This document shows, in pieces, positions 4,561 to 36,874 of a DNA stretch of 64,000 bases. The translations under genes and the position numbers were made by a program. The notes beneath the pieces are model-generated. The model did not search any database and was not told where the DNA came from. It saw nothing but the letters and a program-made list of their open reading frames with translations. Within the stretch, counting starts at the first letter, position 1. The number at the start of each line of letters is the position of its first letter. This DNA comes from an uncultured beta proteobacterium (GTDB lineage Bacteria; Pseudomonadota; Gammaproteobacteria; Burkholderiales; Burkholderiaceae_D), in NCBI GenBank assembly GCA_963722005.1, contig CAVRJS010000002.1:37190-101189 (forward strand), read 5' to 3'.

Positions 4561-4619
4561 CTTTGAAATTTATTGTAGTGATACATCGCTATAATTATTG
4601 GTTATGGTGATCAACTGAA

Positions 4620-5528: not shown

Positions 5529-5768
5529 GCATGGTTCTGGTGCATATTTATCCAAGGCAATTTACCTACAATCTTCAAGTCCTCTCAATCAGTAATTGTC
5601 CCACTACCCGCTGCGATGCTACGTAGCCGTCGAATGTGATGCTGTCCGGTGCGCGGCCCGGTGTTGTGAGCACTTATGTAGAAGCTTCTGTTGAGTAAAG
5701 AATGGCAGTAGTCCTGAATGTGGCGGATATGATGGTTGAATGGTCAAGACATCCCAAAATAGACGGGC

Positions 5769-6344: not shown

Positions 6345-6404
6345 AGAAAACGCTTCTGCTGGCGATAATCGCATGCATGGCGCGCGCGCCGCAAACACGA
6401 AGCA

Positions 6405-7034: not shown

Positions 7035-7370
7035 GGTCTTTCACATTAATACATACGGATGATCGGTAGATGCCCAAGCCTGAAAAGCGAATGCCTGATA
7101 CTCGAGGAAAGCGTAATTTCAAAAAATTATTTACCGATAGCTTACCCCGTGAAGCGCGGAATTCGAAACGAAAGGATGGCAATTGCCCACACCCGACTGC
7201 TCGACCGGATCATGCTACGCCCTGCGGCCGAGAAGACCAGACAGTGCAAATAGCACAAAAAAATGACATATATACAACAAGCCCATGCCGTTCCGGCGGG
7301 ATTGCAAGCCGCTTTTCGCGAGGAGTCGGCAGAAAGCGAGTAAGCTACTACTAAATAGCAAAATGCAGTC

Positions 7371-17378: not shown

Positions 17379-17427
17379 GCGCCTGTCACCGCCGGGCGGG
17401 TTCCTGCCCGGCGTTTCTTCCCGCCCC

Positions 17428-18728: not shown

Positions 18729-18732
<4 letters not shown>
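17428..18732 (-). CDS. DUF58 domain protein (vWA-like), MoxR partner
   Basis: 434 aa. N-terminal TM segments. Typical DUF58 genes follow MoxR ATPases. Start overlaps the MoxR stop (ATGA). Confidence 0.8.
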
Positions 18733-19767
<1,035 letters not shown>

Positions 19768-19778
<11 letters not shown>

Positions 19779-21027: not shown

Positions 21028-22631
21028 GCGGCCTCCACGGATGTGCGTGCGCCGCCGTCAAAGCTGACGCGCCAGTCCTGGCACAACGCCTCGACCTTTT
21101 CGTCCTGCGGCCAGCGGTTGCCGTAGGCGCCGTCCAGCCACACTGATGTCACCGCGGTGGCGACGCGCAGCCTGCCGGCGTCGAGCCGTTGCATGCGCGC
21201 CGCGCGGTTGGCCAGGCGCAGGCAATCCGCTTCGGTGGCACCCCGGGTCAGAAGCAGCCCGTTTTCATTGATCAGGCGCGACACCGTGGCGCGATAGAGC
21301 AGCGCCAGGGCAGCGCGATGCTCGTCCTTGCGCCACAATGCGAGCACGTTGCTGCTGACATCGTCGGGCAGGCTTTCCGGCCTGATGTCGAGGCCGCCGA
21401 TTTCAGTGGCCAGTTCCGGGTTGCGTTGGCCAAACAGCGTCGAGAAATTGCCGCGGAAGCGGTACAGCAGCCATACCACGCCGACGATGGCGAGGGTGAT
21501 CAGCAGCAGCCGCACCACGGCGGCATAGGCTTCCATGTCTGGCGGCGGCGAATTTTTTTTCTTTTCTTCCTTTTCTTTTTCTTCCTTCTTTTTCTCGTTC
21601 GGCTTCGGCTTGCGCACCCAGGTTTCTTCGCAGCGGTAATTGCGCAGATCGTCGTCGCGGTAGAGCTGGTCGACTTCTTCGCGCAGGCGCTTCTGCGTCT
21701 CGTTGCGCGCAGGCGCGCGTTCATTGCCCAGCGTGAGCGACCACTCTGGCTCTTTGCACGCCTCCACGGCAGCACGCGCCGTCTGCGGCTGCATTGCCAC
21801 CAGCAGCACGCAGGCGAGCAGCGCCAGCGCCGCTTTCGCGCCCGGCACGAGCGCGCCGGCGCGCTCCTGCGGCGAGGCCGGCTTGAGCTGGCGCAGCGCG
21901 ATTTCGATATCCCAGGCTTCCAACGTCGCACGCCGGTTCAGGTAGAGCGTAAAGCAGCCGGCGGCATACACCGGGCCGATGATGCCGCCGCACAGCGCAT
22001 AGCAGATATAGGTGACCACGGTCAGCATCGTTTCTTGTTTCTCGCCGAAACTGAACAGGAATTTGAATGGATTGATAGCACCTTCATCCGCAAGAAAGAT
22101 GCCGATAAAAGCTACCGTACCGATCTGTATGACCGCCTCCAGGTGGGCGCAAACGATGCCGTACCAGTATGCCGACCCCGCCGTGCCGGCGGCGCCGATC
22201 ACCCGGCGGCGCTGGGCGGCTTCCCTGCCGCGCGCGCCTTCCAGTTGCCAGATGGGCTGAAACAGGCCGCGGCCCGGCATGAACGGGCGCCACCAAGTCA
22301 GCAGGCGGAACCAGCCGCCGCCGAGCTGGCGCGGCCAGGCGCGCAGCGCTCCCTGCCAGGTTACCTCTTCGCCGAATACCCGGCGCGCGAGAATGTACAG
22401 CGGCGCCCTTTCCAGCAGCGGCCGCAGCCACCACGGCAGCAGCAGCCACCAGGTGGCGCCGTCAGGAAACAGCCACGCCAGGGCCGCCGTCAGCAACATC
22501 AGCGGCAGCCACAGCGCCAGCCAGGCCTTGTAGACGGTGGCGGCATTGGCGCGCAACAGCGCCAGGCCCAGTTCGAGCGCCTGCGCATTCGGTCGCGGCC
22601 GCAAGTCGATCTGCAGTTTGTCCAGCCGCAT
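21024..22631 (-). CDS. DUF4129-like membrane protein with K/E-rich tract
   Basis: About 536 aa starting MRLDKLQIDLRPRPN…. Start overlaps the upstream gene's stop (TGATG). The ORF-track 729-aa call (to 23213) is an artefact: its first 194 codons are an alternate frame across the DUF95 gene. Confidence 0.6.
   Translation of the reverse strand: MRLDKLQIDLRPRPNAQALELGLALLRANAATVYKAWLALWLPLMLLTAALAWLFPDGATWWLLLPWWLRPLLERAPLYILARRVFGEEVTWQGALRAWPRQLGGGWFRLLTWWRPFMPGRGLFQPIWQLEGARGREAAQRRRVIGAAGTAGSAYWYGIVCAHLEAVIQIGTVAFIGIFLADEGAINPFKFLFSFGEKQETMLTVVTYICYALCGGIIGPVYAAGCFTLYLNRRATLEAWDIEIALRQLKPASPQERAGALVPGAKAALALLACVLLVAMQPQTARAAVEACKEPEWSLTLGNERAPARNETQKRLREEVDQLYRDDDLRNYRCEETWVRKPKPNEKKKEEKEKEEKKKNSPPPDMEAYAAVVRLLLITLAIVGVVWLLYRFRGNFSTLFGQRNPELATEIGGLDIRPESLPDDVSSNVLALWRKDEHRAALALLYRATVSRLINENGLLLTRGATEADCLRLANRAARMQRLDAGRLRVATAVTSVWLDGAYGNRWPQDEKVEALCQDWRVSFDGGARTSVEAA
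21553..21596. repeat. 44-nt pure polypyrimidine (T/C) tract on the top strand, polypurine on the coding strand, encoding KKKEEKEKEEKKK
   Basis: Top-strand sequence ttttttttcttttcttccttttctttttcttccttctttttctc lies inside the DUF4129-like CDS. Confidence 0.9.
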
Positions 22632-23581
22632 CAGCCGTCCCTCCTTCCGGCCAGCGCAAAGAAGGCAATCAGCGACGCCCAGCAAATGCCGCCGACGATG
22701 TACTTCACCATCGGCGCGATATCGGGGTCGGCAGACCAGAATGCCTCGAAAAAGGCCGCCAGCACGGTCAGAATGGCAGCGCCGACGAGTACCGGGAACA
22801 TGCGCCTGCCGTCCTCCACCAGCGCCTGGCGACGGGTCAGGCGCCCCGGCGAAAGCAGCGACCAGCCCAGCCGCATGCCGGCCACGCCGGACAGCAGCAG
22901 GCCGAAGACTTCGAAGCTGGCGTGCGTGATCACGAAGGTCCAGAAAGTATCGCGCGTGACCGGATCGCGGCTCAGCCAGCTGGCAACCACGCCGAAATGC
23001 ATGCCGTTGAAGGTGATGCTGATCAGCGCCGGAATGCCGGCAAACAGTCCGCCGGCAAAGGTGCGGAAATCGATCGATACGTTGTTCCAGATGTAAAAGC
23101 CGAACATCAGCACGTCGCTTTCCTCGCTGCCGCGGCCGAGATCGATCTTGCCGGGCTGGTACATGGAATGGTAGCGCTGCAGGTCGCCGGGCGACATGAA
23201 GGCATACGCCCACTCCGGCTCATACCAGACCAGCGCGCCGATGCCCAGGCCGACGCCGAAGAACGCCAATACCGTCAGCAACAGCAGGCGCCATTCGCGC
23301 CGCACCTGGCGCGGCATTTCCACCAGCAGCCAGTGCCGCAAGGTCAGCGGACGCTCGGCAGCAGCGCCATACAGGCGCCTGTGGCAATCGCTCACCATGT
23401 TTTGCAGGTAAGCAGTGAGCGCCGGGGAATAGCCGCGCTGCCCCGCCAGCGCCAGGCACTGGCACAGGCGCCGGTAGAGCGCCGGCAATTCCGTGGCGCC
23501 GTCGCGCGTCGCGCCCTTCAGGATCGCCTGGATCCTGTCCCACAATGGCGCGTACTCGATCTCGAACTGGTTCTGCTTCAT
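22631..23581 (-). CDS. DUF95 / stage II sporulation protein M-like membrane protein
   Basis: 316 aa polytopic membrane protein (MKQNQFEIEYAPLWDRI…). Its position between the RDD and DUF4129-like genes matches the conserved cluster. Overlaps the RDD gene (ATGA). Confidence 0.7.
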   Translation of the reverse strand: MKQNQFEIEYAPLWDRIQAILKGATRDGATELPALYRRLCQCLALAGQRGYSPALTAYLQNMVSDCHRRLYGAAAERPLTLRHWLLVEMPRQVRREWRLLLLTVLAFFGVGLGIGALVWYEPEWAYAFMSPGDLQRYHSMYQPGKIDLGRGSEESDVLMFGFYIWNNVSIDFRTFAGGLFAGIPALISITFNGMHFGVVASWLSRDPVTRDTFWTFVITHASFEVFGLLLSGVAGMRLGWSLLSPGRLTRRQALVEDGRRMFPVLVGAAILTVLAAFFEAFWSADPDIAPMVKYIVGGICWASLIAFFALAGRRDG

Positions 23582-24270
23582 TTCATCAACCCTGCAAGAA
23601 TGCCGCGCAACTGTTCCACGGATGCCGCGCCGGTACGCCCGGTCAATGGCTCAGCCAGCGTGCCCAGCTCTTCCAGGCGCTCGGTCGAGAGCCTGCGCTC
23701 GCGCTCGAACAGGTCGGCGAGGATACGTTGCTGCTCCGGCGTGAGAGGATATGGCGGCGCCAGCGGCGCCACGTCGGCGACGGCAGCGGCGACATTGTCG
23801 CGCTTTTCGCGCTTGTCGCGATAGATCACCTGGGTGCCGGCGACGATATCGCCGAGCCGCCGGCTGCGGCCATCGCACAGCATGGAAACGAGGCCGGCAA
23901 AGTACATGGCCGGGAGAAAATCCGCCACCAGCAACAGGTTGCGCAGGGCCGATTCACGCCAGCCGACCGGCAGGCCGTCCGCGCGCACCACCTCGATGCC
24001 GAGCATGCGTTTGCCGAGCGTGCGGCCGCCGCAATAGACTTCGCACAGGATCGGATAGCCCCAGTAGCTGACGAACAGCATCACCAGATAGATACCCTGG
24101 CCGAGATCGGTGCCCAGCAAGGCCAGCGCCAGTATCCAGATCACCACCAGCCAGATGACGAAATCGATCATCCAGGCTGCCGCGCGCGTGACCGGTCCCA
24201 CCGGCGTCATCAGCAGGCGCACGCCCTCCGGCGTGGTCTGCGAGACGCGCTCGTCGATGACCGCACTCAT
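23578..24270 (-). CDS. RDD family membrane protein
   Basis: About 230 aa from MSAVIDERV…. RDD-like TM core (…AAWMIDFVIWLVVIW…GRTLGKRMLGIEV…). Start overlaps the PLD gene's stop (TGATG). The ORF-track start at 24309 would overlap by 40 nt. Confidence 0.75.
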   Translation of the reverse strand: MSAVIDERVSQTTPEGVRLLMTPVGPVTRAAAWMIDFVIWLVVIWILALALLGTDLGQGIYLVMLFVSYWGYPILCEVYCGGRTLGKRMLGIEVVRADGLPVGWRESALRNLLLVADFLPAMYFAGLVSMLCDGRSRRLGDIVAGTQVIYRDKREKRDNVAAAVADVAPLAPPYPLTPEQQRILADLFERERRLSTERLEELGTLAEPLTGRTGAASVEQLRGILAGLMK

Positions 24271-24992
24271 CACGCGCTCCTTGCGGACGGTTCGTAAAAT
24301 GCGCTCCACAGCAGCGCAAACTGCGCGGAAAAAGCGCTCACCAGCGCTGCATCGTTGGTCATGATCACGTTCTCTTCATTGTGTTCGCTGGCGCTGCGCG
24401 TCCAGTTGTAACTGCCGTTGATCAGCCACTGGCTGTCGAACAGGGCAAATTTGTGGTGCATGTGCGCCGGACTGCGATCCACCGCCACGGGCACGCCGGC
24501 ATGCCGCAGCCTGTCGATGTCGCTGCCGGCGTCGAATTCCTTGTCATTGTCGGTCAGCAGACGCACCTTGACGCCACGCCGGTGCGCCGCCAGCACATCC
24601 TCGCTGATGCGGTCGTCGGACAGCGTGAAGACGCAGATGTCGATGCTGTCGCGTGCGGCGCGCAGGCGCTGCTGGATCGCGCGCAGGCAAGACAGACCCG
24701 GACTGAAAAAAGCCTCATTGCGCAGGGCCGCCACCGGCGCGCGTACGGCGTCGAGCGCGCGCGCCACGCCGTCCAGCCATTTCAGCAGCGATTGCTGCTC
24801 CGCGCCGTCCAGGCGCGCGCGCACCAGGTCGAAGGCGCGGTTGCGCACCTGACGCAAGCCTTCCTCGGGCGTCGCGGCGGCGCGCAGCAGCGTCATCAGC
24901 TCGCGCCTTTCGTCATCGCTCAGGCGCGCATCGGCAATGCTGGCTTCCAGGTGCGCCAGCACGTCGTCGATGGAAACCGCTGCCGTGCTCAT
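24270..24992 (-). CDS. phospholipase D-like (HKD) domain protein
   Basis: 240 aa with a single HKD motif (…HMHHKFALFDSQWLINGSYNWTRSA…), as in Nuc/PLD-superfamily enzymes that act as dimers. Confidence 0.8.
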   Translation of the reverse strand: MSTAAVSIDDVLAHLEASIADARLSDDERRELMTLLRAAATPEEGLRQVRNRAFDLVRARLDGAEQQSLLKWLDGVARALDAVRAPVAALRNEAFFSPGLSCLRAIQQRLRAARDSIDICVFTLSDDRISEDVLAAHRRGVKVRLLTDNDKEFDAGSDIDRLRHAGVPVAVDRSPAHMHHKFALFDSQWLINGSYNWTRSASEHNEENVIMTNDAALVSAFSAQFALLWSAFYEPSARSA

Positions 24993-25019
24993 GCGCGCGG
25001 GCGGCAGGCGCGCCGGGCG

Positions 25020-28000
25020 CTATTTACCGTCATCATGTTTGTCATCCTGTTTTCTGGCATGGGGCCTGGAGGCGAGCGGCTTTTGTTCTGCGGCCGGTTC
25101 CATCAGCGGCTTCAGGCGCCCCAGCCGTTTCTCCAGTTCTTTCATGTTGGCCGACATTTCGCGCACGCCATCCCAGATGCTGTGATCCAGCCGCATCTTG
25201 TGGTTCATGGCGTTCACCATCGGCATCAGGGTTTTCTCATAGCTGTCCGTCAGGCGGGTCAGCAAGCCCTGCAGCGCCTTCTGCTCCGGCACCTTGACGT
25301 TCACCTCGGGCTGCAGGCGCTGGCCGAGCGCGGCGATCTGCTGGCTGACGTCGCCCAGCAGGTTGGCGATCTTCGTGGCGCCATCGGCATCGGCGCCGCC
25401 CTGCTTGCGCAGGCGCACGAAATCCTGACGCAGCGCCTGCCAGCGCGCCTGCTCGTCCGCCGCCGGCTGACCCAGCAGGTGCGCCAGCTTGAGCAGGTTT
25501 TCCTCGGCGCCGCTGGTCAGCGTCTGCGCCTCGCCGCGATAGTGGTCGCGCAGCAGACTGTCGATTTCGTCGTCGCGCATGATGGCCGATATCTTCGGCG
25601 CCAGCTTGCTCATGTTGCGGTAACTGCCTTGCAGCCGGAACGGCGGCTCGTCACGGTAGGCGTCATCCTGCGCCGCCGAGGCGATATAGGCCAGGTTCAC
25701 TTTCAGCAGCGCGTCGCGCACCTTGAACAGGCGCTGCAGCACGCCGCGGATCTCGGCGACTTCCTGGGCGCTGTAGGCATGCTTAAGCTCGCTGGCCGGC
25801 AGCGGTTCGCCGGCGGCCATGCGCAGCAGCGTGTAAATATCCTGCGGGTCGCGTGCCGCCAGCGGCTGCAGCACCGGATGCGAAGTCAGCGAGTTCTCGA
25901 TATAAGACATCGCGAAGGCTTCTTCGCGCCCCGACAGCACGTCGCCAAGGTTATAGATATCGGCGCGGTTGGCCAGCATGTCGGGGATCTTGAAGACGTC
26001 GCCCGATTCGGTGTACGGGTTGCCGGCCATGACGACCGCGAAGCGCTTGCCGCGCATGTCGTAGCTGCGCGCCTCGCCGCGCCAGACGCCTTCGACGCGA
26101 CGCGTGCCGTCGGCCAGCGAAATGAATTTCTGCAGGAACTCCGGATGCGTGTGCTGGATATCGTCGAGGTACAGCATGACGTTGTTACCCATCGCCAAGC
26201 CAAGATTGAGCTTTTCCAGCTCGACGCGCGCCGCGCTGTTGGCGGCCTGCGCCGGGTCCAGCGAAGTCACGCCATGCCCCAGCACAGGGCAATTGACGCG
26301 CACGAAGATCATGCCCAGGCGGTCTGCAAGGTATTCCATCAGGGTGGTCTTGCCATAGCCCGGCGGCGAAATCAGCAGCAGCATGCCCATCGAATCGGTG
26401 CGGCGCTGTTCGCCGGCGGCGCCGATCTGCTTGGCCAGGTTGTCGCCCACCAGCGGTAGGTAAACCTCGTCGAGCAGGCGGTTGCGCACAAAGGAAGACA
26501 GCGGCTTGGCCTGGAACTGTTCCAGCCGCAGACGCGCCTTCTCTTCCTGCCCCAGGGCCTGGCGCAGCTGCTGCAGGCGCTCGTACGCCGGCACGGTCAC
26601 CTGGACGTGATGCTGCAGGCGGCGCGTGAAATCGTTCAGCTGCAATTCGCTTGCCTGGTCGACGATGCGCGGGTGCTCACCCAGCAAACCGTCCACCCTG
26701 ACGCGCAGATCGGCCGCCTGCAGCCGGCGCGGCAGCGCGCACAGCAGGCCGGCGGCAGCTTCCGGCAACAGGCCGGCATCGAGTTCGCGATTGGCGATAT
26801 AGGCGTGCAGCCATTCGCGCGCCAGCTGCCAGCGCTCGCGCCACGACAGCGTGTCGTCCTTCCATGGCAGCGCAATATTGTTGCGTGCCAGGTGCTGCAG
26901 CAAGCCCTGCGCGATCTCGTCAGCGCCGCGACTCTGCACCCATTCGTGGGCCGCGGCGCGCGGCGCCGCCTCCGCTGCGCCGCCGAGCTCCTCCAGCAGA
27001 TAGGCGGCCGCCTGTTGTTGCAGCAGCTCCGCCGATTCGCTGTTGGCATCCAGCAGTTCGACAATGTCGATCTGCTGCTGCGCCAGAAATTTCTGCAGCG
27101 CCAGCTGCAGCTGCGCGACCAGCTGCAGCCACAGCCGCTCGCTGCCGAACTGGCGCCGCATCAGGCCGGCCTGCTCGGCCTGGTGGCGCAGGGTTTGCGC
27201 AGCCAGTTGCAGGCTGGGCGTGGCGGACAGGTCTTGCCAGTACAGCAGCGCGACGGCGCGCGGCAGCGGCGCGAAGCGCAGCAGGCCGGCGCCATCCCAC
27301 AGCGGCGCCAGCTTGCGCAGGATGCGCGCGGCGTCGTGGTCGTGGATGCCCTTCTGGTAGCCTTCGTGGTAGCGCGGCGCGGCAAAGCGGCGCACCTTGT
27401 CTTCAAGCGCACCGTCTTCCTGGCGCGCCGCCTGCAGCAGCGCGTCCAGGCTCCACTCGTCAGTGCCGGCCTGTGCCGCCAGCAGGATTTGCCAGGCAAG
27501 GTACTCGCCGCGATACACCTGGCGGTTTTCCGCCGGCCCTTCCTGGCCCCAGTATTCCTGTAACTCGGCCAGGCGGGGATCGTCCAGCGCGGCGAAATAA
27601 TCGGTGCCGGTGAGATGAAAAGCCAGCTTCTCGCGATGCGGCACGATGGTCAGATCGAGCGTCTGCTGGCTGATGGTGAAGGCATGCCGCCCAAGGCGGA
27701 TGGTATTGCCGCTGACCAGTTCGGTGCGGTCGCGCAGGGCGCGCTGGCCCTGCTCGCGCAGACTTTTTAGCTGGCCGGCAAGGTCGTCAGCGGCGACATG
27801 GTTGCCGATCTTGCGCAACTCCTCGATGCTGCCCTTGAGCTTGCCGAGCAGCGCGTCCGAAGCGAAGTAAGCTTCCAGCTGCGCGGCTTCGCGCAGCTGC
27901 GCCAGCCGCTTTGGCACGCCGGCGAGGATGCGCCGGGCCGCGTCGGCGATGGCCTGCGCGCGCCTTGCGCGCGCATCCAGCAGCGCCTGCTTGCGGGTTT

Positions 28001-30395
28001 CCATGGCTTCGTACACGGCTTCGCGCTTTTGCGCGATCTCGGCGATGTAATCTTCCTGTTCGGCGAAGCGTCCTTCCAGTTCTTCCAGCTGCGCCAGCAG
28101 CCGCGTCAGCAGTTCGTCGCAGCGCTCCGGCGTTTCGGCCTGCTCCAGCGCGCTTTCCACGCCCTGCGCAAACAGCTTGAACTGGGCGGCAAACTCGGCC
28201 GCGGACTCTCCCTGCGACAGCTGCTTCTTGCGCTGGCGCGCTTCGGCACGCAGCTTGTTGACATCGCCATAGATGGCGGAGATGGCATCGAGAATGCGCG
28301 TGCGCAGGGTGGGGTCGCCCACCGACAGCGTGCCGAGCAATTCGTTGAGGCCGTCGAGGCTGCGCGCGGTGCGGTCCAGCTCCTCGTGCAGCGGCGCCAG
28401 TTGCGCCGTGGTCTGCATGGCGGGCAACTCGGCGCGCTGGCGCGCCAGCGCCTCGTTAATGCGCACGAACGCGTCATCCTGCGAGAGGAACTGCACGGTA
28501 CGCTCGGATACGCGCGCCTCTTCCTCGCCAAGCTGGCCGTCGAGCTGGGCCAGCCGCGCCACGTCCATGTAGCGCTGTTCCTTCAGGCTGGCCAGGCGAC
28601 CGCGCGCCAGGCGCAGCTTTTCCAGGGCTTCGATGAAGTCGGTCGGCAGCTGCCACATGCGACTGGCAGTCTCGGTCAGCAGCTGGCGCTGCGCCAGTTC
28701 GGTCTGCTGCAGCGTGCGCTGCGCTTCCTGGCGGATGGCGGCGACCTTGTCGAATTCGTCGAGCGTGGCGCCGGCCACCTCGATCAGGCCGCGCACTGCG
28801 GCCGCAGCCTGCTGCGCCTCGGGCGCCTCCAGCCAGGGATAGGCATCGACGACCCGGCGGCATTGCCGTACCAGGGTTTCATAGACAAAGCGCGTCGGCA
28901 GGCTGTCGCGGCCGCCCTCGCCCTGTTCGCGCACCAGCCGCGCCACCGAGTACAGTTCGGACAAGCCGCGCACCAGTTCGCGGTTGCCGATCTTGCCGAA
29001 GAAAGTCTGGCGCGGCGCCTGGCGCGCGGCATGCTCGTCGCTGAGGAACGGCGTCTGCCACAGCTGCATCGGATGGTTGCGGGTCGGCTCGTCGCTTTCC
29101 ACCGCGAACAGCAGCGCGCGGCCGTCGCCGTAGCGGGCGAATCCGTGCGTCAGCAACGGCTTGGAGAGCGTCTTGTCGATCAGGTTGTAGGTCAGCAGCG
29201 CATAGATGCCGGACTCGACGTTGTAAAACACGTACAGCACGTCCTCGCCGTTCGGCGCCAGCAGGCGGCGCTTGAATTGCAGGCCCTGCGGCATGTCGTC
29301 GAACAGCTTGGCGTCGCCGTTTTGCAGCACGTAGCCGCCCGGGAAGACGATGCCGTGGTCTTCCGGCAGCTGCACGCAGGACGCGCCGATGGCATCGATG
29401 CGCCGCACTTCGCTGTTGCGGCGGTTGTACACCAGGTAGCGGACGGTCGTCTCGCGGTAAGGCTTGATGCGCAGCAGGATCAGCTCGCCGACGGCGGCGT
29501 AGGCGATTTCGGCGTCGTTCAGCGACTGGTTGCGGTCTTCCACCGGCTCGGTGTAGATGCCCAGCCCGGATTCGGTGTTGTCCTCGACCTTGATGGTCAG
29601 GTCGCCGCCGATGGTTTCGACGAACAGGGTATCGAGCACGTTGACATGCGGATGCTTGCCCAGCACGTGCTGGTCGCGCGTGGCGACCGTCCATTCGAAG
29701 TCGTGCGCGGGCGGCAGCGCAATGTCGCGTTCGCCGCGGTTGTCGATGTAACTGACTTCGCCCGATTCGCGCAGCTGCCAGCGGAACACGCGCACGTCGC
29801 TGATGCGTTCGCCGATCTTGAACGCCGCCAGCAGCTTGCCCTGGGTGACGCGCAGCTGCACCAGCTGCGCGTTGCGGTAATAGTTGTAAAGCTCGCGGAA
29901 TTCGGCGATGAAGCGGGCGTCGTCGAGGAAGGTGTTTTCCAGCGGCAGCGCTTCCAGCTCGTCGTGGCCGTCGCCGGCGCGCAGGCGATACAGGCCGAAG
30001 ACGTCGCCCACGCGCGTTTCCTGGCGCAAGCCGATGAAGACGTTGTAACCGAACACCAGGGTGTCGCCGACCAGAACCAGGTCGCGCGCCACGCAATTGT
30101 TTTCGGTGCGCGCACGCGTGCGCGCCAGCAGGGTCAGCTCTTCGCGGCCGAATTCGTCCAGGCGGGCTTGATTGACGCGCCCGGCCTTGTCCAGCAATTC
30201 CTTGCCCTGTTCCGCCAGGCGCCGGCGCAGCAGGTCGAAACTGCTGGAGCCGGCGACTGCCTGCGCAACGGCGGTGTCGCCTGCGTCCGGCTGGCCGGTT
30301 ACGGTATTTGCTACGCTGTTCGCTTCACTCATTGACTGGTTTTCCGCTCGGATATTGGACGTGAGACGATGCGCTTCAATCCGTCCGGGCGGCAA
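25020..30395 (-). CDS. 1791-aa protein: N-terminal globular domain, about 600-aa coiled coil, C-terminal MoxR-like AAA+ ATPase
   Basis: Single uninterrupted frame. C-terminal Walker A LLISPPGYGKTTLMEYL, Walker B VMLYLDDIQH, and VVMAGNPYTESGD sensor region (MoxR/AAA_5-like). Central heptad-like L/Q/E/A/R-rich coiled coil. The ORF-track start is an alternative codon. An ATG at 30332 (MSEANSV…) is the likelier start. Confidence 0.8.
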   Translation of the reverse strand: MPPGRIEAHRLTSNIRAENQSMSEANSVANTVTGQPDAGDTAVAQAVAGSSSFDLLRRRLAEQGKELLDKAGRVNQARLDEFGREELTLLARTRARTENNCVARDLVLVGDTLVFGYNVFIGLRQETRVGDVFGLYRLRAGDGHDELEALPLENTFLDDARFIAEFRELYNYYRNAQLVQLRVTQGKLLAAFKIGERISDVRVFRWQLRESGEVSYIDNRGERDIALPPAHDFEWTVATRDQHVLGKHPHVNVLDTLFVETIGGDLTIKVEDNTESGLGIYTEPVEDRNQSLNDAEIAYAAVGELILLRIKPYRETTVRYLVYNRRNSEVRRIDAIGASCVQLPEDHGIVFPGGYVLQNGDAKLFDDMPQGLQFKRRLLAPNGEDVLYVFYNVESGIYALLTYNLIDKTLSKPLLTHGFARYGDGRALLFAVESDEPTRNHPMQLWQTPFLSDEHAARQAPRQTFFGKIGNRELVRGLSELYSVARLVREQGEGGRDSLPTRFVYETLVRQCRRVVDAYPWLEAPEAQQAAAAVRGLIEVAGATLDEFDKVAAIRQEAQRTLQQTELAQRQLLTETASRMWQLPTDFIEALEKLRLARGRLASLKEQRYMDVARLAQLDGQLGEEEARVSERTVQFLSQDDAFVRINEALARQRAELPAMQTTAQLAPLHEELDRTARSLDGLNELLGTLSVGDPTLRTRILDAISAIYGDVNKLRAEARQRKKQLSQGESAAEFAAQFKLFAQGVESALEQAETPERCDELLTRLLAQLEELEGRFAEQEDYIAEIAQKREAVYEAMETRKQALLDARARRAQAIADAARRILAGVPKRLAQLREAAQLEAYFASDALLGKLKGSIEELRKIGNHVAADDLAGQLKSLREQGQRALRDRTELVSGNTIRLGRHAFTISQQTLDLTIVPHREKLAFHLTGTDYFAALDDPRLAELQEYWGQEGPAENRQVYRGEYLAWQILLAAQAGTDEWSLDALLQAARQEDGALEDKVRRFAAPRYHEGYQKGIHDHDAARILRKLAPLWDGAGLLRFAPLPRAVALLYWQDLSATPSLQLAAQTLRHQAEQAGLMRRQFGSERLWLQLVAQLQLALQKFLAQQQIDIVELLDANSESAELLQQQAAAYLLEELGGAAEAAPRAAAHEWVQSRGADEIAQGLLQHLARNNIALPWKDDTLSWRERWQLAREWLHAYIANRELDAGLLPEAAAGLLCALPRRLQAADLRVRVDGLLGEHPRIVDQASELQLNDFTRRLQHHVQVTVPAYERLQQLRQALGQEEKARLRLEQFQAKPLSSFVRNRLLDEVYLPLVGDNLAKQIGAAGEQRRTDSMGMLLLISPPGYGKTTLMEYLADRLGMIFVRVNCPVLGHGVTSLDPAQAANSAARVELEKLNLGLAMGNNVMLYLDDIQHTHPEFLQKFISLADGTRRVEGVWRGEARSYDMRGKRFAVVMAGNPYTESGDVFKIPDMLANRADIYNLGDVLSGREEAFAMSYIENSLTSHPVLQPLAARDPQDIYTLLRMAAGEPLPASELKHAYSAQEVAEIRGVLQRLFKVRDALLKVNLAYIASAAQDDAYRDEPPFRLQGSYRNMSKLAPKISAIMRDDEIDSLLRDHYRGEAQTLTSGAEENLLKLAHLLGQPAADEQARWQALRQDFVRLRKQGGADADGATKIANLLGDVSQQIAALGQRLQPEVNVKVPEQKALQGLLTRLTDSYEKTLMPMVNAMNHKMRLDHSIWDGVREMSANMKELEKRLGRLKPLMEPAAEQKPLASRPHARKQDDKHDDGK

Positions 30396-30404
30396 GGAAA
30401 GCGA

Positions 30405-30905
30405 TCATTTCCGCAGCATTGGGCCGATCCTGGAGCCACTGCCTGATGCGCTGCAATTCATCGAAATCGTCGCCAAAGCGGCCGCGCTGGGCCGCGCTAC
30501 GCGTGCGCGCGACGCCGCCGTCTGCAGGTTGCGCTGCCAGCGCTCCGACACCACGTCATCCAGCTGACGTTCCAGGCCCAGCGACAGCAGCACTTCCCAT
30601 TCGCCTTGGTCGAGCCAGACTCCCTGGGCCGGCGCACTGTAGTCGAGCCGGAACGGTGTCTCGTTGGTGACCTTTACGCGCATCATCAGGCGCCCGGTCT
30701 TCGGACAAAGCCGCGCCATGTCGCCGTCATCCTCTATTTCTGCAGCATGCAACGGCTCCGGCGACTCGACCACCAGGTGGCGCCAGGCGCGGTAGATATC
30801 GAGATCGACCCAGATGCCGTGGCAAGCCGTGCAGCTCAACACCGGCAAATCGCCGTGCACCAGTACCTGGTTAAATTCCCTTGCAGCGCAAGCAGGACAA
30901 CGCAT
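30405..30905 (-). CDS. zinc-ribbon domain protein
   Basis: 166 aa. N-terminal CPAC…(16)…CTAC four-cysteine zinc ribbon and a second CPKTG half-site. Lies between the flotillin and giant ATPase genes. Confidence 0.6.
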   Translation of the reverse strand: MRCPACAAREFNQVLVHGDLPVLSCTACHGIWVDLDIYRAWRHLVVESPEPLHAAEIEDDGDMARLCPKTGRLMMRVKVTNETPFRLDYSAPAQGVWLDQGEWEVLLSLGLERQLDDVVSERWQRNLQTAASRARVARPSAAALATISMNCSASGSGSRIGPMLRK

Positions 30906-30919
30906 CGGTGCGCCCTTTC

Positions 30920-33082
30920 CTATTTCGGCATGGACGACGCATCGCCGTCCGGCTTGAAGTTTTGCAGCAGGCGATTCAGCGCCGCCTTCTGCTGGCCGTT
31001 GCCCTCCCTGCTCACCTTGGCCAGCAAGCCGGCCACCGTCAGGTCCTGCAGTTCCGAGGCGCTGCCGCCGAGGGCGCCGATCAGGCCCTGCAGATCGCCG
31101 ACCATGTCGCGCTCGCCGTTCAGGTGGTCTTTCAGGCCGACCTGCAGGGTCTTGCTCTTGGCGATGGTGGCATCGATGCCCTTGCCGATCGACAGCGCGT
31201 TGACGAAGCGGTCGAAGTAATCGCCCTCGCCGCCGACGATGTCGATCTTGGCATTCTGCAGCGCCTTGCCCAGCACTTCGGCCTGCTCGCGGGCGATGCT
31301 GGTCTGCGCTTCGATGCCCTTGATGATCTGCTGATTGGCGATTTCCAGCTGCATGCGGTATTCCTCGTGGGCACGGGTGTCGGTGCTCATCGCCGCCATG
31401 GCCTCGAACTTCTGGCGCAGGCCGGTCGATTCCGCCTCGAACTTGGCCTGGATGACGCTCGCCTCGGCCTGGCCGTGACGCGTCACGGCATCGGCGTCGG
31501 CGGTCTTGACAGCGGCTTCGGCAAAACCGAGCTGCTCGTTGCCCCTGGCTTGTGCCTCCAGCTGCAGGCGCGTGGCTTCCGCCTGGGCTGCGCCCTGGCG
31601 CAGGACGGCTTCGGAATCGGCCACCTTGCCTTTGGCTTCGGCTTCCATGCGCAGGCGAATCGCTTCGGCTTCGGCCGCGCCCTGCTTGAGGATGGCTTCG
31701 GATTCAGCAATCTTGACGCGGGCGTCGGCCAGGCCTTCGGCCGCCAGTTCGGCTTCCTTGCCCTCGGCTTCGCGCTTCTTGGCTTCGGCCGCCTTTTCCG
31801 CCACTTTCAGACGCGCCTCGGCGAGCGTCAGCTCCTGCTGCGCCTTGTGCTTGGCCGAGCGCTCTTCCGCTTCGGCTGCCTTGACGGTCAACACCATTTT
31901 CTCTTCGGCGCTGGCTTCGGCGGTGATCACCACGGACTTCTTCTGGCGATCCGCTTCGGACACCACGCGCACTTCCTTGATCGCTTCTTCCTGCTCGGCC
32001 ACCGTGCGCTCGACCACGATGCGTTCGCGGATGACATCGGCAATCGCCTTCTTCTGCACCTCGATCGCCTTTTCCTTCTCGATGGTCTGCAATGCCACTT
32101 CGCGCTCGCGCTCGACGATTTCCAGCTGACGGGCGCGGGTGACGCGCTCTTCCTCGATGGCGATGGCGCGCTTGCGATTGTTTTCCGCGACTTCCTTTTC
32201 GCGCTGGGTGTTTTCCTGCTGCACCAGGATCAGCTGCTCGGCCTGCAGGCGCGCCAGTTCGGACTTGGCGTGCTCTTCCGCTTGCACCTTCTCGGTTTCG
32301 GCCTGTTCACGCGCGCGCACCGAGCCGACTTCACGGCCCTGGCGCGATTCGGCGTCGGCCTGCTGGCGTTCCAGTTCGAGGATGGCTTCGCGCGTTTCCA
32401 CGTCCTTCTTCTTGATGCGCATCTGTTCGTCGCGCCGCAGCTCATTGGTGCGCACGCTCTCGACTGCGGTCAGCTCGGTGATTTTCTTGATACCCTGGGC
32501 ATCGAGGATATTCTGGCCATCCAGCTTGTCCATCGGCGTTTGTTCCAGGTAATCGATCGCCGCATCTTCCAGCACGTAGCCGGACAGGTCGTCGCCGATC
32601 TGGCGGATGATCTCGTCGCGGAAGCGGTCGCGCGCCTGGTACAACTCGACGAAATCCATCGACTTGCCCACTGTTTTCAGGGCCTCGGCAAATTTGGCAG
32701 AAAACAGGCTTTCCAGCGTCTCCTGGTTGGAGGCGCGCGCGCAACCGACCGCTTGCGCCACCCGCAGCACGTCTTCCGCGGTCTTGTTGACGCGAATGAA
32801 GAAGGTCACCTTGATATCGGCGCGGATATTGTCCTGGCAAATCAGGCCCTCCTTGCCGAAGCGGTCGATCTCGATGGTCTTGAGCGAGATTTCCATCAAT
32901 TCCCGCTTGTGGATGATGGGGTAGACCATGCCGCCGGTGAAAGTCACTTCCGGCTCCGAGCGCAGCGTGTTGATGATCATGGCATGACCCTGCTCCACCT
33001 TGTGGTAGAACTTGGCGAACATGGCCAGCAATCCGAACAGCACGAGAGTGCCGACGCCTATCGAGAGCAGCATGATATCCAT
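30920..33082 (-). CDS. flotillin (SPFH/band-7) family protein, YqiK-like
   Basis: About 720 aa from MDIMLLSIGVGTLV…. SPFH domain, then a long E/A/K/R-rich flotillin coiled coil with repeated AEAE/EAEA motifs. AAGGAAA RBS upstream of the chosen ATG. The ORF-track start at 33250 is an over-extension. Confidence 0.85.
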   Translation of the reverse strand: MDIMLLSIGVGTLVLFGLLAMFAKFYHKVEQGHAMIINTLRSEPEVTFTGGMVYPIIHKRELMEISLKTIEIDRFGKEGLICQDNIRADIKVTFFIRVNKTAEDVLRVAQAVGCARASNQETLESLFSAKFAEALKTVGKSMDFVELYQARDRFRDEIIRQIGDDLSGYVLEDAAIDYLEQTPMDKLDGQNILDAQGIKKITELTAVESVRTNELRRDEQMRIKKKDVETREAILELERQQADAESRQGREVGSVRAREQAETEKVQAEEHAKSELARLQAEQLILVQQENTQREKEVAENNRKRAIAIEEERVTRARQLEIVEREREVALQTIEKEKAIEVQKKAIADVIRERIVVERTVAEQEEAIKEVRVVSEADRQKKSVVITAEASAEEKMVLTVKAAEAEERSAKHKAQQELTLAEARLKVAEKAAEAKKREAEGKEAELAAEGLADARVKIAESEAILKQGAAEAEAIRLRMEAEAKGKVADSEAVLRQGAAQAEATRLQLEAQARGNEQLGFAEAAVKTADADAVTRHGQAEASVIQAKFEAESTGLRQKFEAMAAMSTDTRAHEEYRMQLEIANQQIIKGIEAQTSIAREQAEVLGKALQNAKIDIVGGEGDYFDRFVNALSIGKGIDATIAKSKTLQVGLKDHLNGERDMVGDLQGLIGALGGSASELQDLTVAGLLAKVSREGNGQQKAALNRLLQNFKPDGDASSMPK

Positions 33083-33141
33083 GGGTTTCCTTCTTGTCTG
33101 GTTGGGTGGTTCTGGGGATATGGAAAGATTTGCCGGGAAAC

Positions 33142-33762
33142 TCAGCCGTCGGCCGGCGCCGCCGCCACTTCGTACTGCTGGCGGGCGTCGTCGTAGTCGA
33201 GGATGACTGCGGTGGAATTCTTGCCAAGGGTATTGGGCGCCTTCGCCCACACGCGGATGTTGAGGCTGACGCCGCTGTCGCTGACTTCGGCGCGGCCGAA
33301 CTTTTCATCGACGCTGCCGGTCACGATGCGGCAATGCAGGCCGACCAGGCTGCGGTTGCTGCGCGCCTGGTGCTTGACGAACAGTCCGCGCAAGGGCCGG
33401 ATGGCGCGCGCCGACAAGGGAATGGCCAGGCCTGCCGCCAGCAGCAGCACGCCGGCGCCGGCCAGCAGCTGCAGCGGCAGCGTTGGCACCCACACCAGCA
33501 CGTACTGGTGCGCCAGCGCGGTAAACAGCCAGGTGAAAAAGACCAGCACCGTGAGCGCAATCGAGATCGGCACGCCCCCCAGGCCCAGGGCCACCAGGTA
33601 ACCCGCCAGGGAATGCAGGTCGTGATCGCCGACTTCGAATTCGAGGCTGTCGCCCAGGTCGACCAGGCCGACAATGGAAAACAGCCAGTAAACGAGCAGG
33701 ACGGCGAGCACGACCGTGGGCACGGCGCTTGGAAAGCTGCTGAGCAACGCCCAGGTCGACAT
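33142..33762 (-). CDS. YqiJ/DUF1449 (NfeD-like) membrane protein
   Basis: About 206 aa from MSTWALLSSFPSAV…. Multiple TM helices plus a C-terminal soluble OB-like region. The classic yqiJ-yqiK arrangement directly upstream of flotillin. Confidence 0.7.
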   Translation of the reverse strand: MSTWALLSSFPSAVPTVVLAVLLVYWLFSIVGLVDLGDSLEFEVGDHDLHSLAGYLVALGLGGVPISIALTVLVFFTWLFTALAHQYVLVWVPTLPLQLLAGAGVLLLAAGLAIPLSARAIRPLRGLFVKHQARSNRSLVGLHCRIVTGSVDEKFGRAEVSDSGVSLNIRVWAKAPNTLGKNSTAVILDYDDARQQYEVAAAPADG

Positions 33763-33853
33763 CGTCCATTCCCCTATAAAAATGCACATCGTTACCGGGC
33801 TCGTCGGCCGCGGCGCGCTTTGCCGGCACCGGCAAACTGATGCCTATTATTTA

Positions 33854-34186
33854 TTATTTCTTTTTTGAAACTTGCTTTTTCGCAAAGTTTATCAGTTCCT
33901 GATGCAAAACTTCCTTGATTCGTCGTTTATCTTCCACATCGATACCAAATCGCTGCGCCAGCAAGACGTAATCGGCATCGCTCAGGCTGACCGTCAGGCG
34001 CGGACGCTGCGGTCGCGCGGTGCAGGGCAGGCCGAGGATCGTGCGGATCTGGTCGGGTTGCGACAGGTGGTTCACATAGGCGGCATAGCGCACCGCCTCG
34101 ATGACCTGCTCTTCGACGTCGAACGCCACCTGCACTGCGCGCAAGGCGGCGTCCGACCCCGACCAGCGCGAAGAACTGCGCACCAT
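33854..34186 (-). CDS. small hypothetical protein, possible ribbon-helix-helix
   Basis: 110-aa ORF. The segment …RPRLTVSLSDADYVLLAQRFGID… resembles an RHH beta-strand/helix. The true start may be an internal Met. Confidence 0.4.
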   Translation of the reverse strand: MVRSSSRWSGSDAALRAVQVAFDVEEQVIEAVRYAAYVNHLSQPDQIRTILGLPCTARPQRPRLTVSLSDADYVLLAQRFGIDVEDKRRIKEVLHQELINFAKKQVSKKK

Positions 34187-34199: not shown

Positions 34200-34940
34200 T
34201 CAGGATCTTTCCGGAGCCGCGCCGTCCGCGCCCGCCGCCTTGCCGGCGTCGCCGCTCATGCGTGCCTGCAGGCGCGCCATGACGGCGTTCTTGCGGCTGG
34301 CATTTTCGCCGATGCCGGCGGCGGCCAGCTTACCCTCCAGCGCGCGCCCGCCCATTTCGCCGTCCAGCGCTTCGGCCGCCTGCATGCGGTCGGCCAGGTC
34401 CTGGTGACGCTGCTTGATGCGCTCCAGCGATTCCTTGGCGCTCATCAGCTTGGAGCCGCTTGAGCCCATGCTTTGCGAAATGGTCGCCGTGGCCTTGTAG
34501 ACGCTTTCGGTAGTCTTGGCCATGGTCAGCTGGCGTTCGTGCTCGCGCAAATCGGCCTCGGCGTTGCGGATCATTTCCTTCAGGCGCGCGACATGCGCGG
34601 CAAATTCGGTGCGCGCGGCGGCCTGCTCGGCGCTGGCCTGCTCGAGGTTGGCGACCTTGCCGGCGACTTCCTCTGCCAGCGCAGCCTCGCCCTTTTGCAG
34701 GGCTTGCATGGCCAGCTCCTCGTACTTGCGGATTTCGCCCGCCAGGCGCTCGATTTCACGCCCGGCCTGCATTTCCTTGGCCATGACCGCGGTCAGGTCA
34801 TGGCGCGCAACGGCGACATGGCGGCGGGAATCGACGATTTCCTGCTCGTAAATGGTGGTGGCATTGTTGTCGACCACGCTTTGACCGATATCGCGCAGGT
34901 TACCGCGCAGCATGGTCAGGATTTTCGAAAAGACAGCCAT
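34200..34940 (-). CDS. PspA/IM30 family protein (YjfJ-like)
   Basis: About 246 aa from MAVFSKILTMLRGNLRDIGQS…. Long coiled coil typical of PspA/Vipp1. AAGGAGG RBS 8 nt upstream. The ORF-track start at 35060 is an over-extension. Confidence 0.85.
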   Translation of the reverse strand: MAVFSKILTMLRGNLRDIGQSVVDNNATTIYEQEIVDSRRHVAVARHDLTAVMAKEMQAGREIERLAGEIRKYEELAMQALQKGEAALAEEVAGKVANLEQASAEQAAARTEFAAHVARLKEMIRNAEADLREHERQLTMAKTTESVYKATATISQSMGSSGSKLMSAKESLERIKQRHQDLADRMQAAEALDGEMGGRALEGKLAAAGIGENASRKNAVMARLQARMSGDAGKAAGADGAAPERS

Positions 34941-34950: not shown

Positions 34951-35379
34951 TTATTTGAGATAGTCGGCAAACACTTCGAGGGCTTCGATGGCGTTGTCCG
35001 CCACCATGGCCACGTCTTTGGCAATGGCGTCGACGCCGGCATCCGGCGCCAGCGCGCCATAGATCACGTAGCGCTCGCCGATGCGGCCGAAATCGGACAG
35101 CGGAATCGAAATGTTCAGGTCGATCATCGCTTCGAGCATGTCGGCGCGCCGCTCAGTGCGCACTTCGGCCTCGGTCCACAGGTAGCTGATGCACAGCACC
35201 TGGGTAGGCGTGACAGTGACGAACACCGGCAATTCTTCCTGCCCCTCGAAGCTGATGCGCATCACCGGCACGCCATCCGCATCGGCCGGCGGCAGCACAG
35301 AGGTACTCACCGGGGATGCGGCGCGATGCTGCGCCAGCGCTTGTTCGATGCCCTGCAACTGAATCATGCCCTGCTCCAT
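34951..35379 (-). CDS. YjfI/DUF2170 family protein
   Basis: About 142 aa from MEQGMIQLQGIEQ…. DUF2170-like. Classic yjfI-yjfJ pairing with the PspA-family gene. AGGGGGA RBS. Confidence 0.7.
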   Translation of the reverse strand: MEQGMIQLQGIEQALAQHRAASPVSTSVLPPADADGVPVMRISFEGQEELPVFVTVTPTQVLCISYLWTEAEVRTERRADMLEAMIDLNISIPLSDFGRIGERYVIYGALAPDAGVDAIAKDVAMVADNAIEALEVFADYLK

Positions 35380-35668
35380 GCTTCCCCCTTCGTTGTTAGA
35401 GTGATGCGACGACATAATATGTCAACGTTAGCGATGCTGACATAAAATGTCAAGCATTCTGCAAACAATTTTATCAACCGTGCAAGCACGCTACGATTTG
35501 TGCCTTTTCGGGTTTAAATATCTTTAACATTTACCTCGGCAAAAATGATTTTATTTCCACAAGGAATTATCTATCATGGGGTGTATGGATTGGCCGTGCA
35601 TGCATGCCACATATTCATTGCAAATAATCAATAAAATCATTCTTTTCAGGAAACTCAGATAGAATGAA

Positions 35669-36874
35669 ATGCTGTCGGTTGCCGCATGCGGCAGACCGGT
35701 GCAATCCCTTGCGGGACCTGCGCTGCGCCAACCGTTCACAGAATTTGTCGCCGACATGTGTGTGCCACCCGGCCTGGCGCAAACCGGTGCAACAGGAATC
35801 CGGTACATGGATGCGCAGATGGCCCAGACACCGAGTATGGAAAATCTATTAAAACATCTGGTTGAAATTACGGGGCACCGTGATCACAACCTGCTGGACA
35901 TTTCCGTCATTTCCGCGCTGAGCGACCTGGTAGGCGCCAAGCAGGCGCGCGTGCTCGAGATTTTCCGCGTGCGCGACGAAATGTTCGTGCGGCCCCGGGT
36001 GTGGCTCAAGGATGGCGCCGCCGTGTCGCTGGAAGACCACGTCGAAGGCGACCTGTCGGGCGATCCGCTCACCGCCTATCCTGCCATCGTCGCCTGCATC
36101 GAACGGCATCTCGACTGCTACGAAGAATTCGGCGGCGGCCCGGAACATGCGCTGTGGATTCCCGTGTGGCTCAATGAAAAGGTCGGCACCTGCCTGCACA
36201 TCGTCAACTCGACGCCTTATACGCAAGCGATGAAGGATGTGATGGGCGGCATCCTCAGCGTCTATCGCAATTTCCAGAACCTGCTGGATTACAGCGAACG
36301 CGATTCCCTGACAGGCCTGCTGAACCGCAAGACCTTCGACGAAAAATTCTCGAAGATGACCGCTTACGTGCCGCCGCCGGACGGCACCGGCCAGGAAGGC
36401 GATGAGCGGCAATGCAGCGAGGAGCCGCGCGAACACTGGATGGCGATGGTCGACATCGACCATTTCAAGCGCATCAACGATTCCTTCGGCCATCTCTATG
36501 GCGACGAAGTGCTGATCCTGGTGGCCAACCTGCTGCGCGCCTCGTTCCGCACCCAGGACCGCATTTTCCGTTTCGGCGGCGAAGAATTCATGATCCTGCT
36601 GCGCTCGGCCACGCTGGACGACGCGCGCCGGATCTTCGAGCGCTTTCGCGCCAGCGTCGAGCAGCACAACTTTCCCCAGGTGGGCCGGGTCACCATCAGC
36701 CTGGGCTTCGTCAAGATTACGGCGCAAACTCCGGTGGTGCTGCTTGGCCGCGCCGATCAGGCGCTGTACTATGCCAAAGCCCACGGCCGCAACCAGATCT
36801 GCCAGTATGAGGACCTGATCGAGCGCGGCCTGCTCCACTCCCGCGTTGCCAACGACAGCGTCGAATTCTTCTAA
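35669..36874 (+). CDS. diguanylate cyclase (GGDEF) with N-terminal GAF-like sensor
   Basis: GGDEF domain with RFGGEEFMILL active site. The N-terminal about 170 aa looks GAF-like. An alternative start (MDAQMAQ…) at 35807 is plausible. Confidence 0.8.
   Translation: MLSVAACGRPVQSLAGPALRQPFTEFVADMCVPPGLAQTGATGIRYMDAQMAQTPSMENLLKHLVEITGHRDHNLLDISVISALSDLVGAKQARVLEIFRVRDEMFVRPRVWLKDGAAVSLEDHVEGDLSGDPLTAYPAIVACIERHLDCYEEFGGGPEHALWIPVWLNEKVGTCLHIVNSTPYTQAMKDVMGGILSVYRNFQNLLDYSERDSLTGLLNRKTFDEKFSKMTAYVPPPDGTGQEGDERQCSEEPREHWMAMVDIDHFKRINDSFGHLYGDEVLILVANLLRASFRTQDRIFRFGGEEFMILLRSATLDDARRIFERFRASVEQHNFPQVGRVTISLGFVKITAQTPVVLLGRADQALYYAKAHGRNQICQYEDLIERGLLHSRVANDSVEFF

Follow-up and report, generated by a model that had tools for sequence, protein, structure and literature searches.

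An eight-gene operon of the bac class encoding a flotillin-linked DUF3686-AAA+ ATPase in an uncultured betaproteobacterium

The window analysed here is a 64,000-nucleotide (nt) stretch from an uncultured beta proteobacterium of the Burkholderiaceae_D (assembly GCA_963722005.1, contig CAVRJS010000002.1, positions 37,190 to 101,189). Its minus strand carries an operon encoding a giant ATPase together with a flotillin and an NfeD-like membrane protein, which is another member of an already described class of operons, the bac or CesT-PspA-flotillin-AAA+ class. The original prediction had proposed five of its genes as an uncharacterised system, and these five same-direction open reading frames (ORFs) were confirmed at the predicted positions within 24270–33789. 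Gene starts were chosen by ribosome-binding site (RBS) and database gene models. Three further genes on the same strand, encoding a DUF2170 protein, a PspA protein and a conserved protein of 110 amino acids (aa), lie 5' of the YqiJ-like gene with spacings of 10–91 nt (10 nt between the DUF2170 and PspA genes). The DUF2170 gene starts at the ATG at 35379, with GAAGGGGGA as its RBS. The operon reaches approximately 35379 rather than only 33762 and comprises eight genes, of which the earlier proposal had covered the downstream five (Table 1). Its order is DUF2170, PspA, 110-aa protein, YqiJ-like NfeD, YqiK-type flotillin, double Zn-ribbon protein, DUF3686-AAA+ ATPase and PLD6-like HKD hydrolase. 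The DUF2170-PspA dyad that had been missed is the strongest functional clue at the locus.

The gaps between the five downstream genes were not all 15 nt or less, as had been claimed, but 59 nt (YqiJ-like to flotillin), 14 nt (flotillin to Zn-ribbon), 72 nt from the ATG or 9 nt with a TTG start (Zn-ribbon to ATPase) and 27 nt (ATPase to PLD). No intergenic minus-strand terminator was seen ahead of a guanine-cytosine (GC)-rich hairpin at 17390–17413. The promoter matches 5' of the first gene represent consensus resemblance only. An Rfam scan of the window found no RNA families.

Table 1. Genes and features of the operon and its immediate surroundings, in window coordinates and in the direction of transcription.
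Feature	Position	Strand	Evidence
Promoter-like region, 5' of first operon gene	35414..35577	-	Two sigma-70-like consensus matches (9/12)
DUF2170/YjfI-like protein, CesT/Tir-type chaperone fold, BacA-like, first gene	34951..35379	-	Pfam DUF2170 5e-23
PspA/IM30 family protein, ESCRT-III superfamily, BacB-like	34200..34940	-	Pfam PspA_IM30 1.7e-33; RBS AAGGAGG
Conserved 110-aa protein, between PspA and YqiJ-like genes	33854..34186	-	Position kept in homologous loci
YqiJ/YuaF-like short NfeD, three transmembrane (TM) segments and C-terminal OB-like domain, BacC-like	33142..33762	-	hhalign against E. coli YqiJ
YqiK-type flotillin: N-terminal TM segment, SPFH, EA-rich coiled-coil region, conserved C-terminal domain, BacD/PaFlo3-like	30920..33082	-	BLASTP/hhalign against YqiK
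Protein with two PF13453 zinc-ribbon modules	30405..30905	-	PF13453 1e-7
Giant DUF3686/DUF7902/AAA+ ATPase, 1770 aa, BacE/PA3728-like	25020..30332	-	Pfam and AlphaFold2 (AF2) models
Single-HKD PLD-family hydrolase, PLD6/MitoPLD/Zucchini-like, BacF-like	24270..24992	-	PLDc_2 2e-31
RDD-family membrane protein, outside the conserved system	23578..24270	-	Pfam RDD 2e-18

The giant ATPase was identical to a database protein (P0001). Pfam matched DUF3686 at residues 66–519 (E value 1e-191), followed by DUF7902 and AAA/AAA_5; the AAA_5 match scored 31.9 bits against a cut-off of 22 and covered model positions 2–127 of 139. The protein carries a Walker A (SPPGYGKTT) and a Walker B (LYLDD) motif. In an alignment spanning 33–80% identity, Walker A, Walker B (DD), sensor 1 and the arginine finger were invariant across phyla, which implies an active enzyme. 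The sequence MAGNPYTE...ANRAD presumably resembles the sensor-1 and arginine-finger motifs of MoxR proteins. The Walker B motif has the form hhhhDD (LYLDDIQH, residues 1390–1391, window positions 26160–26170), not DE, which leaves the identity of the water-activating residue in question. An AF2 model of the AAA+ module (predicted local distance difference test, pLDDT, 69) contained a beta-hairpin between Walker B and sensor 1. In a Foldseek search with this model, the MoxR-class protein NorQ ranked at the top, with MCM, RuvB, NtrX and ClpB about equal. With the full-length AAA_5 match, assignment to the MoxR/dynein-related (AAA_5) type of AAA+ ATPases, close to the MoxR-like identity originally predicted, is reasonable but short of proof. 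Neither VWA nor DUF58, the cognate partners of MoxR ATPases, was a conserved neighbour of the giant ATPase in the loci. No TM segment, protease domain or MIT domain was detected in the giant ATPase.

The AF2 model of residues 1–539 (pLDDT 81; predicted template modelling score 0.75) showed terminal helices flanking an all-beta region of approximately 360 residues, and its top Foldseek matches were all beta-propellers. The modelling supports the view of the N-terminal region (residues ~45–500) as a helical bundle with a beta-propeller-like DUF3686 domain. A coiled coil of about 600 aa had been predicted for the middle of the protein and was not confirmed; the region has invariant residues (G881, E935, R941, G995, H997, D1000 and R1025) and conserved blocks unlike a coiled coil. 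A candidate Rosetta-stone fusion, the NfeD1b-DUF3686 protein P0312, was rejected, its residues ~240–490 being low-complexity R/A/G/P sequence typical of a mis-framed gene call. A full-text literature search on 'DUF3686' returned no papers.

For the flotillin and the YqiJ-like protein, Pfam, PDB-sequence and PDB-profile searches gave nothing significant. Because neither had a Pfam match, their identities needed separate proof, and the E. coli K-12 yqiJ-yqiK prototypes (NC_000913.3) were used for direct comparison. The flotillin matched YqiK in BLASTP (2e-36, 29% identity in a 450-aa alignment that takes in the entire SPFH domain) and in hhalign (99.9%). A 24-member family profile of the YqiJ-like protein matched YqiJ in hhalign (92.9%, E value 3.7e-7), and the predicted yqiJ-yqiK-like pair was thereby confirmed. 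Three hydrophobic segments precede the C-terminal domain of the YqiJ-like protein, and a single TM segment occupies residues 1–26 of the flotillin, whose conserved C-terminus carries the motif IDIVGG...GKG. A Hymenobacter homologue of the YqiJ-like protein is annotated as DUF1449. The two genes form an NfeD-SPFH pair like yqiJ-yqiK of E. coli and yuaF-floT of B. subtilis, with a flotillin homologous to YqiK and a 3-TM/OB protein related to YqiJ. Unlike the window pair, yqiJK of E. coli has no neighbouring gene for an ATPase, PspA or PLD. The window flotillin is also ~170 aa longer than YqiK, and the Pfam family Band_7 fails to detect it.

The DUF3686 domain family comprised 718 clusters at 50% identity, and a pattern scan with one genome per species yielded at least 584 stretches encoding a relative of the giant ATPase. 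Eighty species loci were kept, and homologues of each window gene were mapped in them with jackhmmer; the denominators given are evaluable loci. These loci came from Beta-, Gamma- and Zetaproteobacteria, Myxococcota, Actinobacteria, Acidobacteriota and a Clostridia metagenome-assembled genome (MAG). A flotillin gene was located directly 5' of the ATPase gene in 73/73 loci and a YqiJ-like gene was present in 70/70, both in all phyla sampled. The remaining genes were linked in Beta- and Gammaproteobacteria only: DUF2170 and PspA in 33/69 loci, PLD in 16/69, the Zn-ribbon gene between the flotillin and ATPase genes in 11/70, and the 110-aa gene, mostly in Burkholderiales, at its window position in 12/69. 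PspA and DUF2170 were divergent from the operon in 3 further loci, and a Bacteroidota plasmid encoded a Tir chaperone, PspA, DUF1449, flotillin and ATPase in that order. All-against-all clustering of the flanking ORFs did not add another widely conserved partner; its biggest cluster (13 loci) reflected lineage synteny. The neighbourhood counts therefore define an invariant triad of NfeD-like protein, flotillin and giant ATPase, plus lineage-specific additions. The triad is the evolutionary core, and PLD, the Zn-ribbon protein and DUF2170 with PspA are accessory.

Co-occurrence of the five originally predicted genes outside this genome was observed, in the order YqiJ-like, flotillin, Zn-ribbon, ATPase and PLD, in six loci (L007, L010, L012, L017, L046 and L078). 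The complete window arrangement recurred in L007, L010 and L017; L078 matched it except for the 110-aa gene. An ATPase family with a conserved setting unrelated to flotillin, which would have spoken against the association, was not encountered, flotillin adjoining in every evaluable locus. The ATPase and PLD had also been proposed as an effector pair; both genes are real, but the pair that proved invariant is flotillin and ATPase. Gaps of 59–72 nt between some genes could be taken to mean that the five are independent and merely adjacent. This explanation is effectively refuted: the order was kept in 70–73 of 70–73 evaluable loci across phyla, far beyond chance, intergenic terminators were not found, and the P. 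aeruginosa homologues are co-transcribed.

The same partners bear on the database annotation of the giant ATPase. The Pfam text for DUF3686 reads 'ATPase involved in DNA repair', the NCBI name is 'DNA repair ATPase', and marginal RuvB P-loop matches were obtained; on these grounds the protein would be a DNA-repair ATPase acting with a PLD-family nuclease, and the membrane genes would be unrelated neighbours. The RuvB similarity, however, is confined to ~50 residues at Walker A and does not reach family thresholds. The two invariant partners are membrane proteins, no conserved DNA-repair neighbour was found in the loci, and published evidence for a repair role was not found either. A repair function is thus extremely improbable.

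The gene combination is not uncharacterised, as had been thought, since its class was described by Ravi et al. 2024 (PMC11237479) and its gene order matches that of the bac operon. These authors reported an operon joining CesT/Tir-PspA with three further components and an optional PLD, and proposed sub-membrane assembly and remodelling without giving an experimental function (PMC11237479). Every component they listed is present in the window. They also suggested that abbreviated operons work with PspA encoded elsewhere (PMC11237479), and their abbreviated operon corresponds to the NfeD-flotillin-ATPase core of the non-proteobacterial phyla. The Zn-ribbon gene, the 110-aa gene and the PLD6 affinity of the PLD are not mentioned for the operon in that work (PMC11237479). 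On the Pseudomonas megaplasmid pQBR103 (L086, NC_009444.1, 1–12211), the triad directly follows a yjfJ-type PspA-rhomboid-DUF2491-DUF350-DUF1190-glutathionylspermidine-synthase-like operon, joining two PspA contexts that Ravi et al. treated separately.

The experimentally studied member of the class is bacABCDEF of P. aeruginosa, a six-gene, co-transcribed operon starting with DUF2170 and PspA (PMC10948618). This 'biofilm-associated cluster' corresponds to PA3732-PA3727 or PA14_16140-16200. Mutants in bacA or bacB were reduced in biofilm formation, rhamnolipid, swarming and virulence; the other Bac proteins rose together in a bacA mutant, and BacB rose on osmotic shock (PMC10948618). The cluster's short NfeD is PA14_16160 and its SPFH protein, PaFlo3, is PA14_16180 (PMC13086221); PA3728 is listed as 'ATPase' (PMC8190622). 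Five other Pseudomonas loci (L021, L022, L029, L035 and L078) showed the order DUF2170, PspA, NfeD, flotillin, ATPase and PLD. From this synteny in other Pseudomonas species and from annotation, not from the P. aeruginosa sequence, we infer that bacE encodes the giant ATPase and bacF the PLD.

Families and order thus agree between the window and bac, from DUF2170 and PspA through short NfeD, SPFH/flotillin and giant ATPase to the sixth gene. The window displays the DUF2170-PspA pair at the 5' end, a 3-TM NfeD gene followed by a flotillin with TM, SPFH and coiled-coil regions, and the optional PLD gene 3' of the ATPase. The ATPase with its predicted propeller and AAA+ module also follows the flotillin, with one Zn-ribbon gene intercalated. 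Compared with the P. aeruginosa operon, the window adds the 110-aa and Zn-ribbon genes, runs gapless into an RDD-MoxR cluster and lacks a sigma-54 consensus. New details here are the PLD6 affinity of the PLD and the apparent Zn-ribbon frameshift. Further extras of the window are the unusual read-through into the MoxR cluster and the Zn-ribbon and 110-aa genes, which are common to other Burkholderiales.

The PLD protein belongs to the single-HKD family, as had been recognised, and carries the HKD motif HHKFALFD at residue 179. Its closest solved relative is mammalian PLD6/MitoPLD, the mitochondrial cardiolipin hydrolase of the PLD6/MitoPLD/Zucchini subfamily (2e-30; 58 of 136 ungapped residues identical, 43%), and the matches to Nuc (5e-9) and NucT (1.5e-6) were far weaker. 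Scores of 90–112 bits against the PLD6 fragment were obtained for 20 of the 21 operon-adjacent PLD matches, which makes the similarity to PLD6 a family-wide trait. With this cardiolipin hydrolase and PIWI-interacting RNA nuclease the window protein shares a single HKD domain and high similarity across the catalytic domain. The two differ in that a membrane anchor is present there, whereas a soluble helical N-terminal domain (~95 aa) and a bacterial operon setting are found here. In eight PLD-less loci (including L025:15177-15776), an ORF of ~199 aa lies just 3' of the giant ATPase gene and slightly overlaps it.

The predicted zinc ribbon was recovered as a PF13453 match with CxxC...CxxC, and a second module (residues 66–109, window 30600–30720) matched PDB 8yoz at 7e-6 with the family profile. 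All four cysteines of the second module are kept in other Burkholderiales but have been lost in the window and its closest relatives (L005-L007). The conserved C-terminal ~37 residues of the homologues (RFGDDFDELQRIRQWLQDRPNAAEMIAFLAARTD) are encoded here in another frame, at 30376–30486 on the minus strand. The gene appears to be C-terminally frameshifted at ~30376–30500, either by a true mutation or because the GC-rich sequence gave rise to a sequencing indel. The 110-aa protein had no match in Pfam and PDB searches; a tandem ribbon-helix-helix reading made by eye was supported by no search.

The reading we favour, with a probability of roughly 0.55, is that the operon encodes a cytoplasmic-membrane maintenance or envelope-stress machine in which the giant ATPase remodels assemblies of flotillin and NfeD, and of PspA where present. 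Starting from the gene identities, the conserved linkage and the conserved ATPase motifs, we infer the protein-protein contacts and substrates as follows. The flotillin, anchored by its one TM helix, would oligomerise at the inner membrane face with its 3-TM NfeD-like partner. The soluble ATPase would dock through its N-terminal beta-propeller/helical-bundle domain and oligomerise through its C-terminal AAA+ module, with ATP powering assembly, remodelling or dismantling of the flotillin/NfeD scaffold. A recruited, ESCRT-III-like PspA polymer may be a further target of the ATPase in proteobacteria, with the DUF2170 protein as a putative chaperone or regulator of PspA. In B. subtilis, an SPFH protein is reported to link PspA to the membrane (PMC8581546). 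The PLD would act locally at the platform, and we consider a lipid more likely than a nucleic acid as its substrate: it may hydrolyse cardiolipin, or some other phospholipid, to phosphatidic acid, an activity proposed for MitoPLD. Lineage-specific adaptor or regulator roles are suggested for the Zn-ribbon and 110-aa proteins.

The mode of action would resemble that of FtsH inside HflK/C cages or of Vps4 on ESCRT-III, where an SPFH scaffold or an ESCRT-III-family polymer is served by a dedicated AAA+ ATPase. This is a working analogy: the giant ATPase belongs to neither the FtsH nor the Vps4 family, having an AAA_5/MoxR-like module with a DD Walker B and lacking TM segment, protease and MIT domain.

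Taken further, the Vps4 precedent would make the ATPase a disassembly factor whose true client is PspA, encoded in the operon or elsewhere, with flotillin and NfeD as only a membrane platform. The PspA and DUF2170 genes directly 5' in nearly half of the evaluable loci, the divergent pairs and the Bacteroidota example are consistent with this, as is the suggestion by Ravi et al. on PspA supplied from elsewhere to abbreviated operons (PMC11237479). Yet linked PspA was absent from 20/20 evaluable loci of Myxococcota, Actinobacteria, Acidobacteriota, Zetaproteobacteria and the Clostridia MAG, all of which kept flotillin and NfeD. An MIT-like domain was not detected in the ATPase either, and its AAA+ module is AAA_5-like rather than of the classic Vps4 clade. 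PspA as the true client is a doubtful but reasonable alternative.

Several points weigh against the machine that we favour. The ATPase client, flotillin or PspA, is assigned from gene neighbourhood alone, the low-confidence AAA+ model gives no clade placement, and the Walker B motif departs from the DE form. Deletion of paFlo3 in P. aeruginosa lowered biofilm by only ~20% (PMC13086221). Unlike the proposed bacA promoter, the 300 nt 5' of the first gene gave no match to the sigma-54 consensus TGGCAC-N5-TTGCA (≤3 mismatches) in a simple consensus scan; a sigma-54-type site at ≤2 mismatches occurred in 1/39 other loci, and the feature has been proposed for one species only. No TM or hydrophobic segment comparable with the MitoPLD anchor was seen in the PLD. 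The nearest relatives of the PLD (Zucchini/MitoPLD, Nuc and NucT) include proven nucleases, which makes a lipid and a nucleic-acid substrate both possible. It also weakly matched the Mokosh MkoB (2e-8) and DISARM DrmC models, and DpdK.

Giant ATPases and PLD nucleases recur in defence systems. Together with the MkoB, DrmC and DpdK matches and the relationship to NucT nucleases, this would fit an anti-phage or anti-plasmid system with the ATPase as sensor or motor, the PLD as nuclease effector and the flotillin as membrane tether. The original prediction had left the choice between membrane remodelling and phage defence; the former fits the gene context, and the scans did not support the latter. 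PADLOC defence models matched the components only through generic P-loop or HKD similarity. Relatives of the giant ATPase were absent from 50,697 phage genomes and from IMG/VR; among 72,556 plasmid records, 13 had one, and most of these were megaplasmids or chromids. Among 139 proteins flanking 30 diverse loci, few (roughly five) had PADLOC matches at 1e-10, and the window operon is flanked by ordinary metabolic and signalling genes with even GC content. A defence role is therefore very unlikely, given also that the PLD is missing from 53/69 loci and that the gene order is stable across many phyla.

A bolder form of the membrane-maintenance reading holds that the ATPase is a dedicated ATP-driven remodeller of flotillin/NfeD (and linked PspA) and that its PLD6-like partner makes phosphatidic acid from cardiolipin for membrane repair or fusion. 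We consider this combination speculative and on balance unlikely. If it were true, the operon would be a bacterial forerunner of the membrane-fusion function of MitoPLD, and bacterial flotillins would gain a defined biochemical cycle. Flotillins and the PspA family are central to bacterial membrane organisation and repair, and an ATPase found in at least 584 species, and adjacent to one flotillin family in every evaluable locus, offers an experimental handle on the turnover of their assemblies. The operon class carries virulence and biofilm phenotypes in P. aeruginosa, and the window provides a further example of it, not a new kind of system. This lineage-specific variant carries two additional small genes and an accessory PLD close to animal MitoPLD/Zucchini.

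Downstream, the ATG of the RDD gene overlaps the PLD stop codon by 1 nt. The RDD gene is the first of a minus-strand cluster (17428–24270) encoding RDD, SpoIIM, an unknown protein of 538 aa, DUF4350, MoxR (AAA_3) and DUF58 proteins. This cluster is probably co-transcribed with the operon, and the co-directional genes extend over ~18 kilobases to the hairpin at 17390–17413. The RDD-to-DUF58 families never adjoined the giant ATPase in 84 other loci. The RDD, SpoIIM, DUF4350, MoxR and DUF58 genes were rejected as members of the system because none is linked to the ATPase elsewhere. The DUF58 gene (17428–18732) pairs with a separate, bona fide MoxR gene (18729–19778).

A GGDEF diguanylate cyclase gene (35669–36874, plus strand) is divergent from the operon promoter region, which is noteworthy in view of the biofilm phenotype of the homologous Pseudomonas operon. 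Elsewhere in the window, a 1783-aa ORF (56854–62205, plus strand) carries DUF2339, a membrane protein family, and DUF3999, and may be a fusion of two genes. It lies in the GC-richest part of the window (0.70), where the AT skew is also strongly negative (-0.33). The GC content was 0.54–0.58 at window positions 1–8000 and 62001–64000, compared with 0.60–0.70 in the rest.

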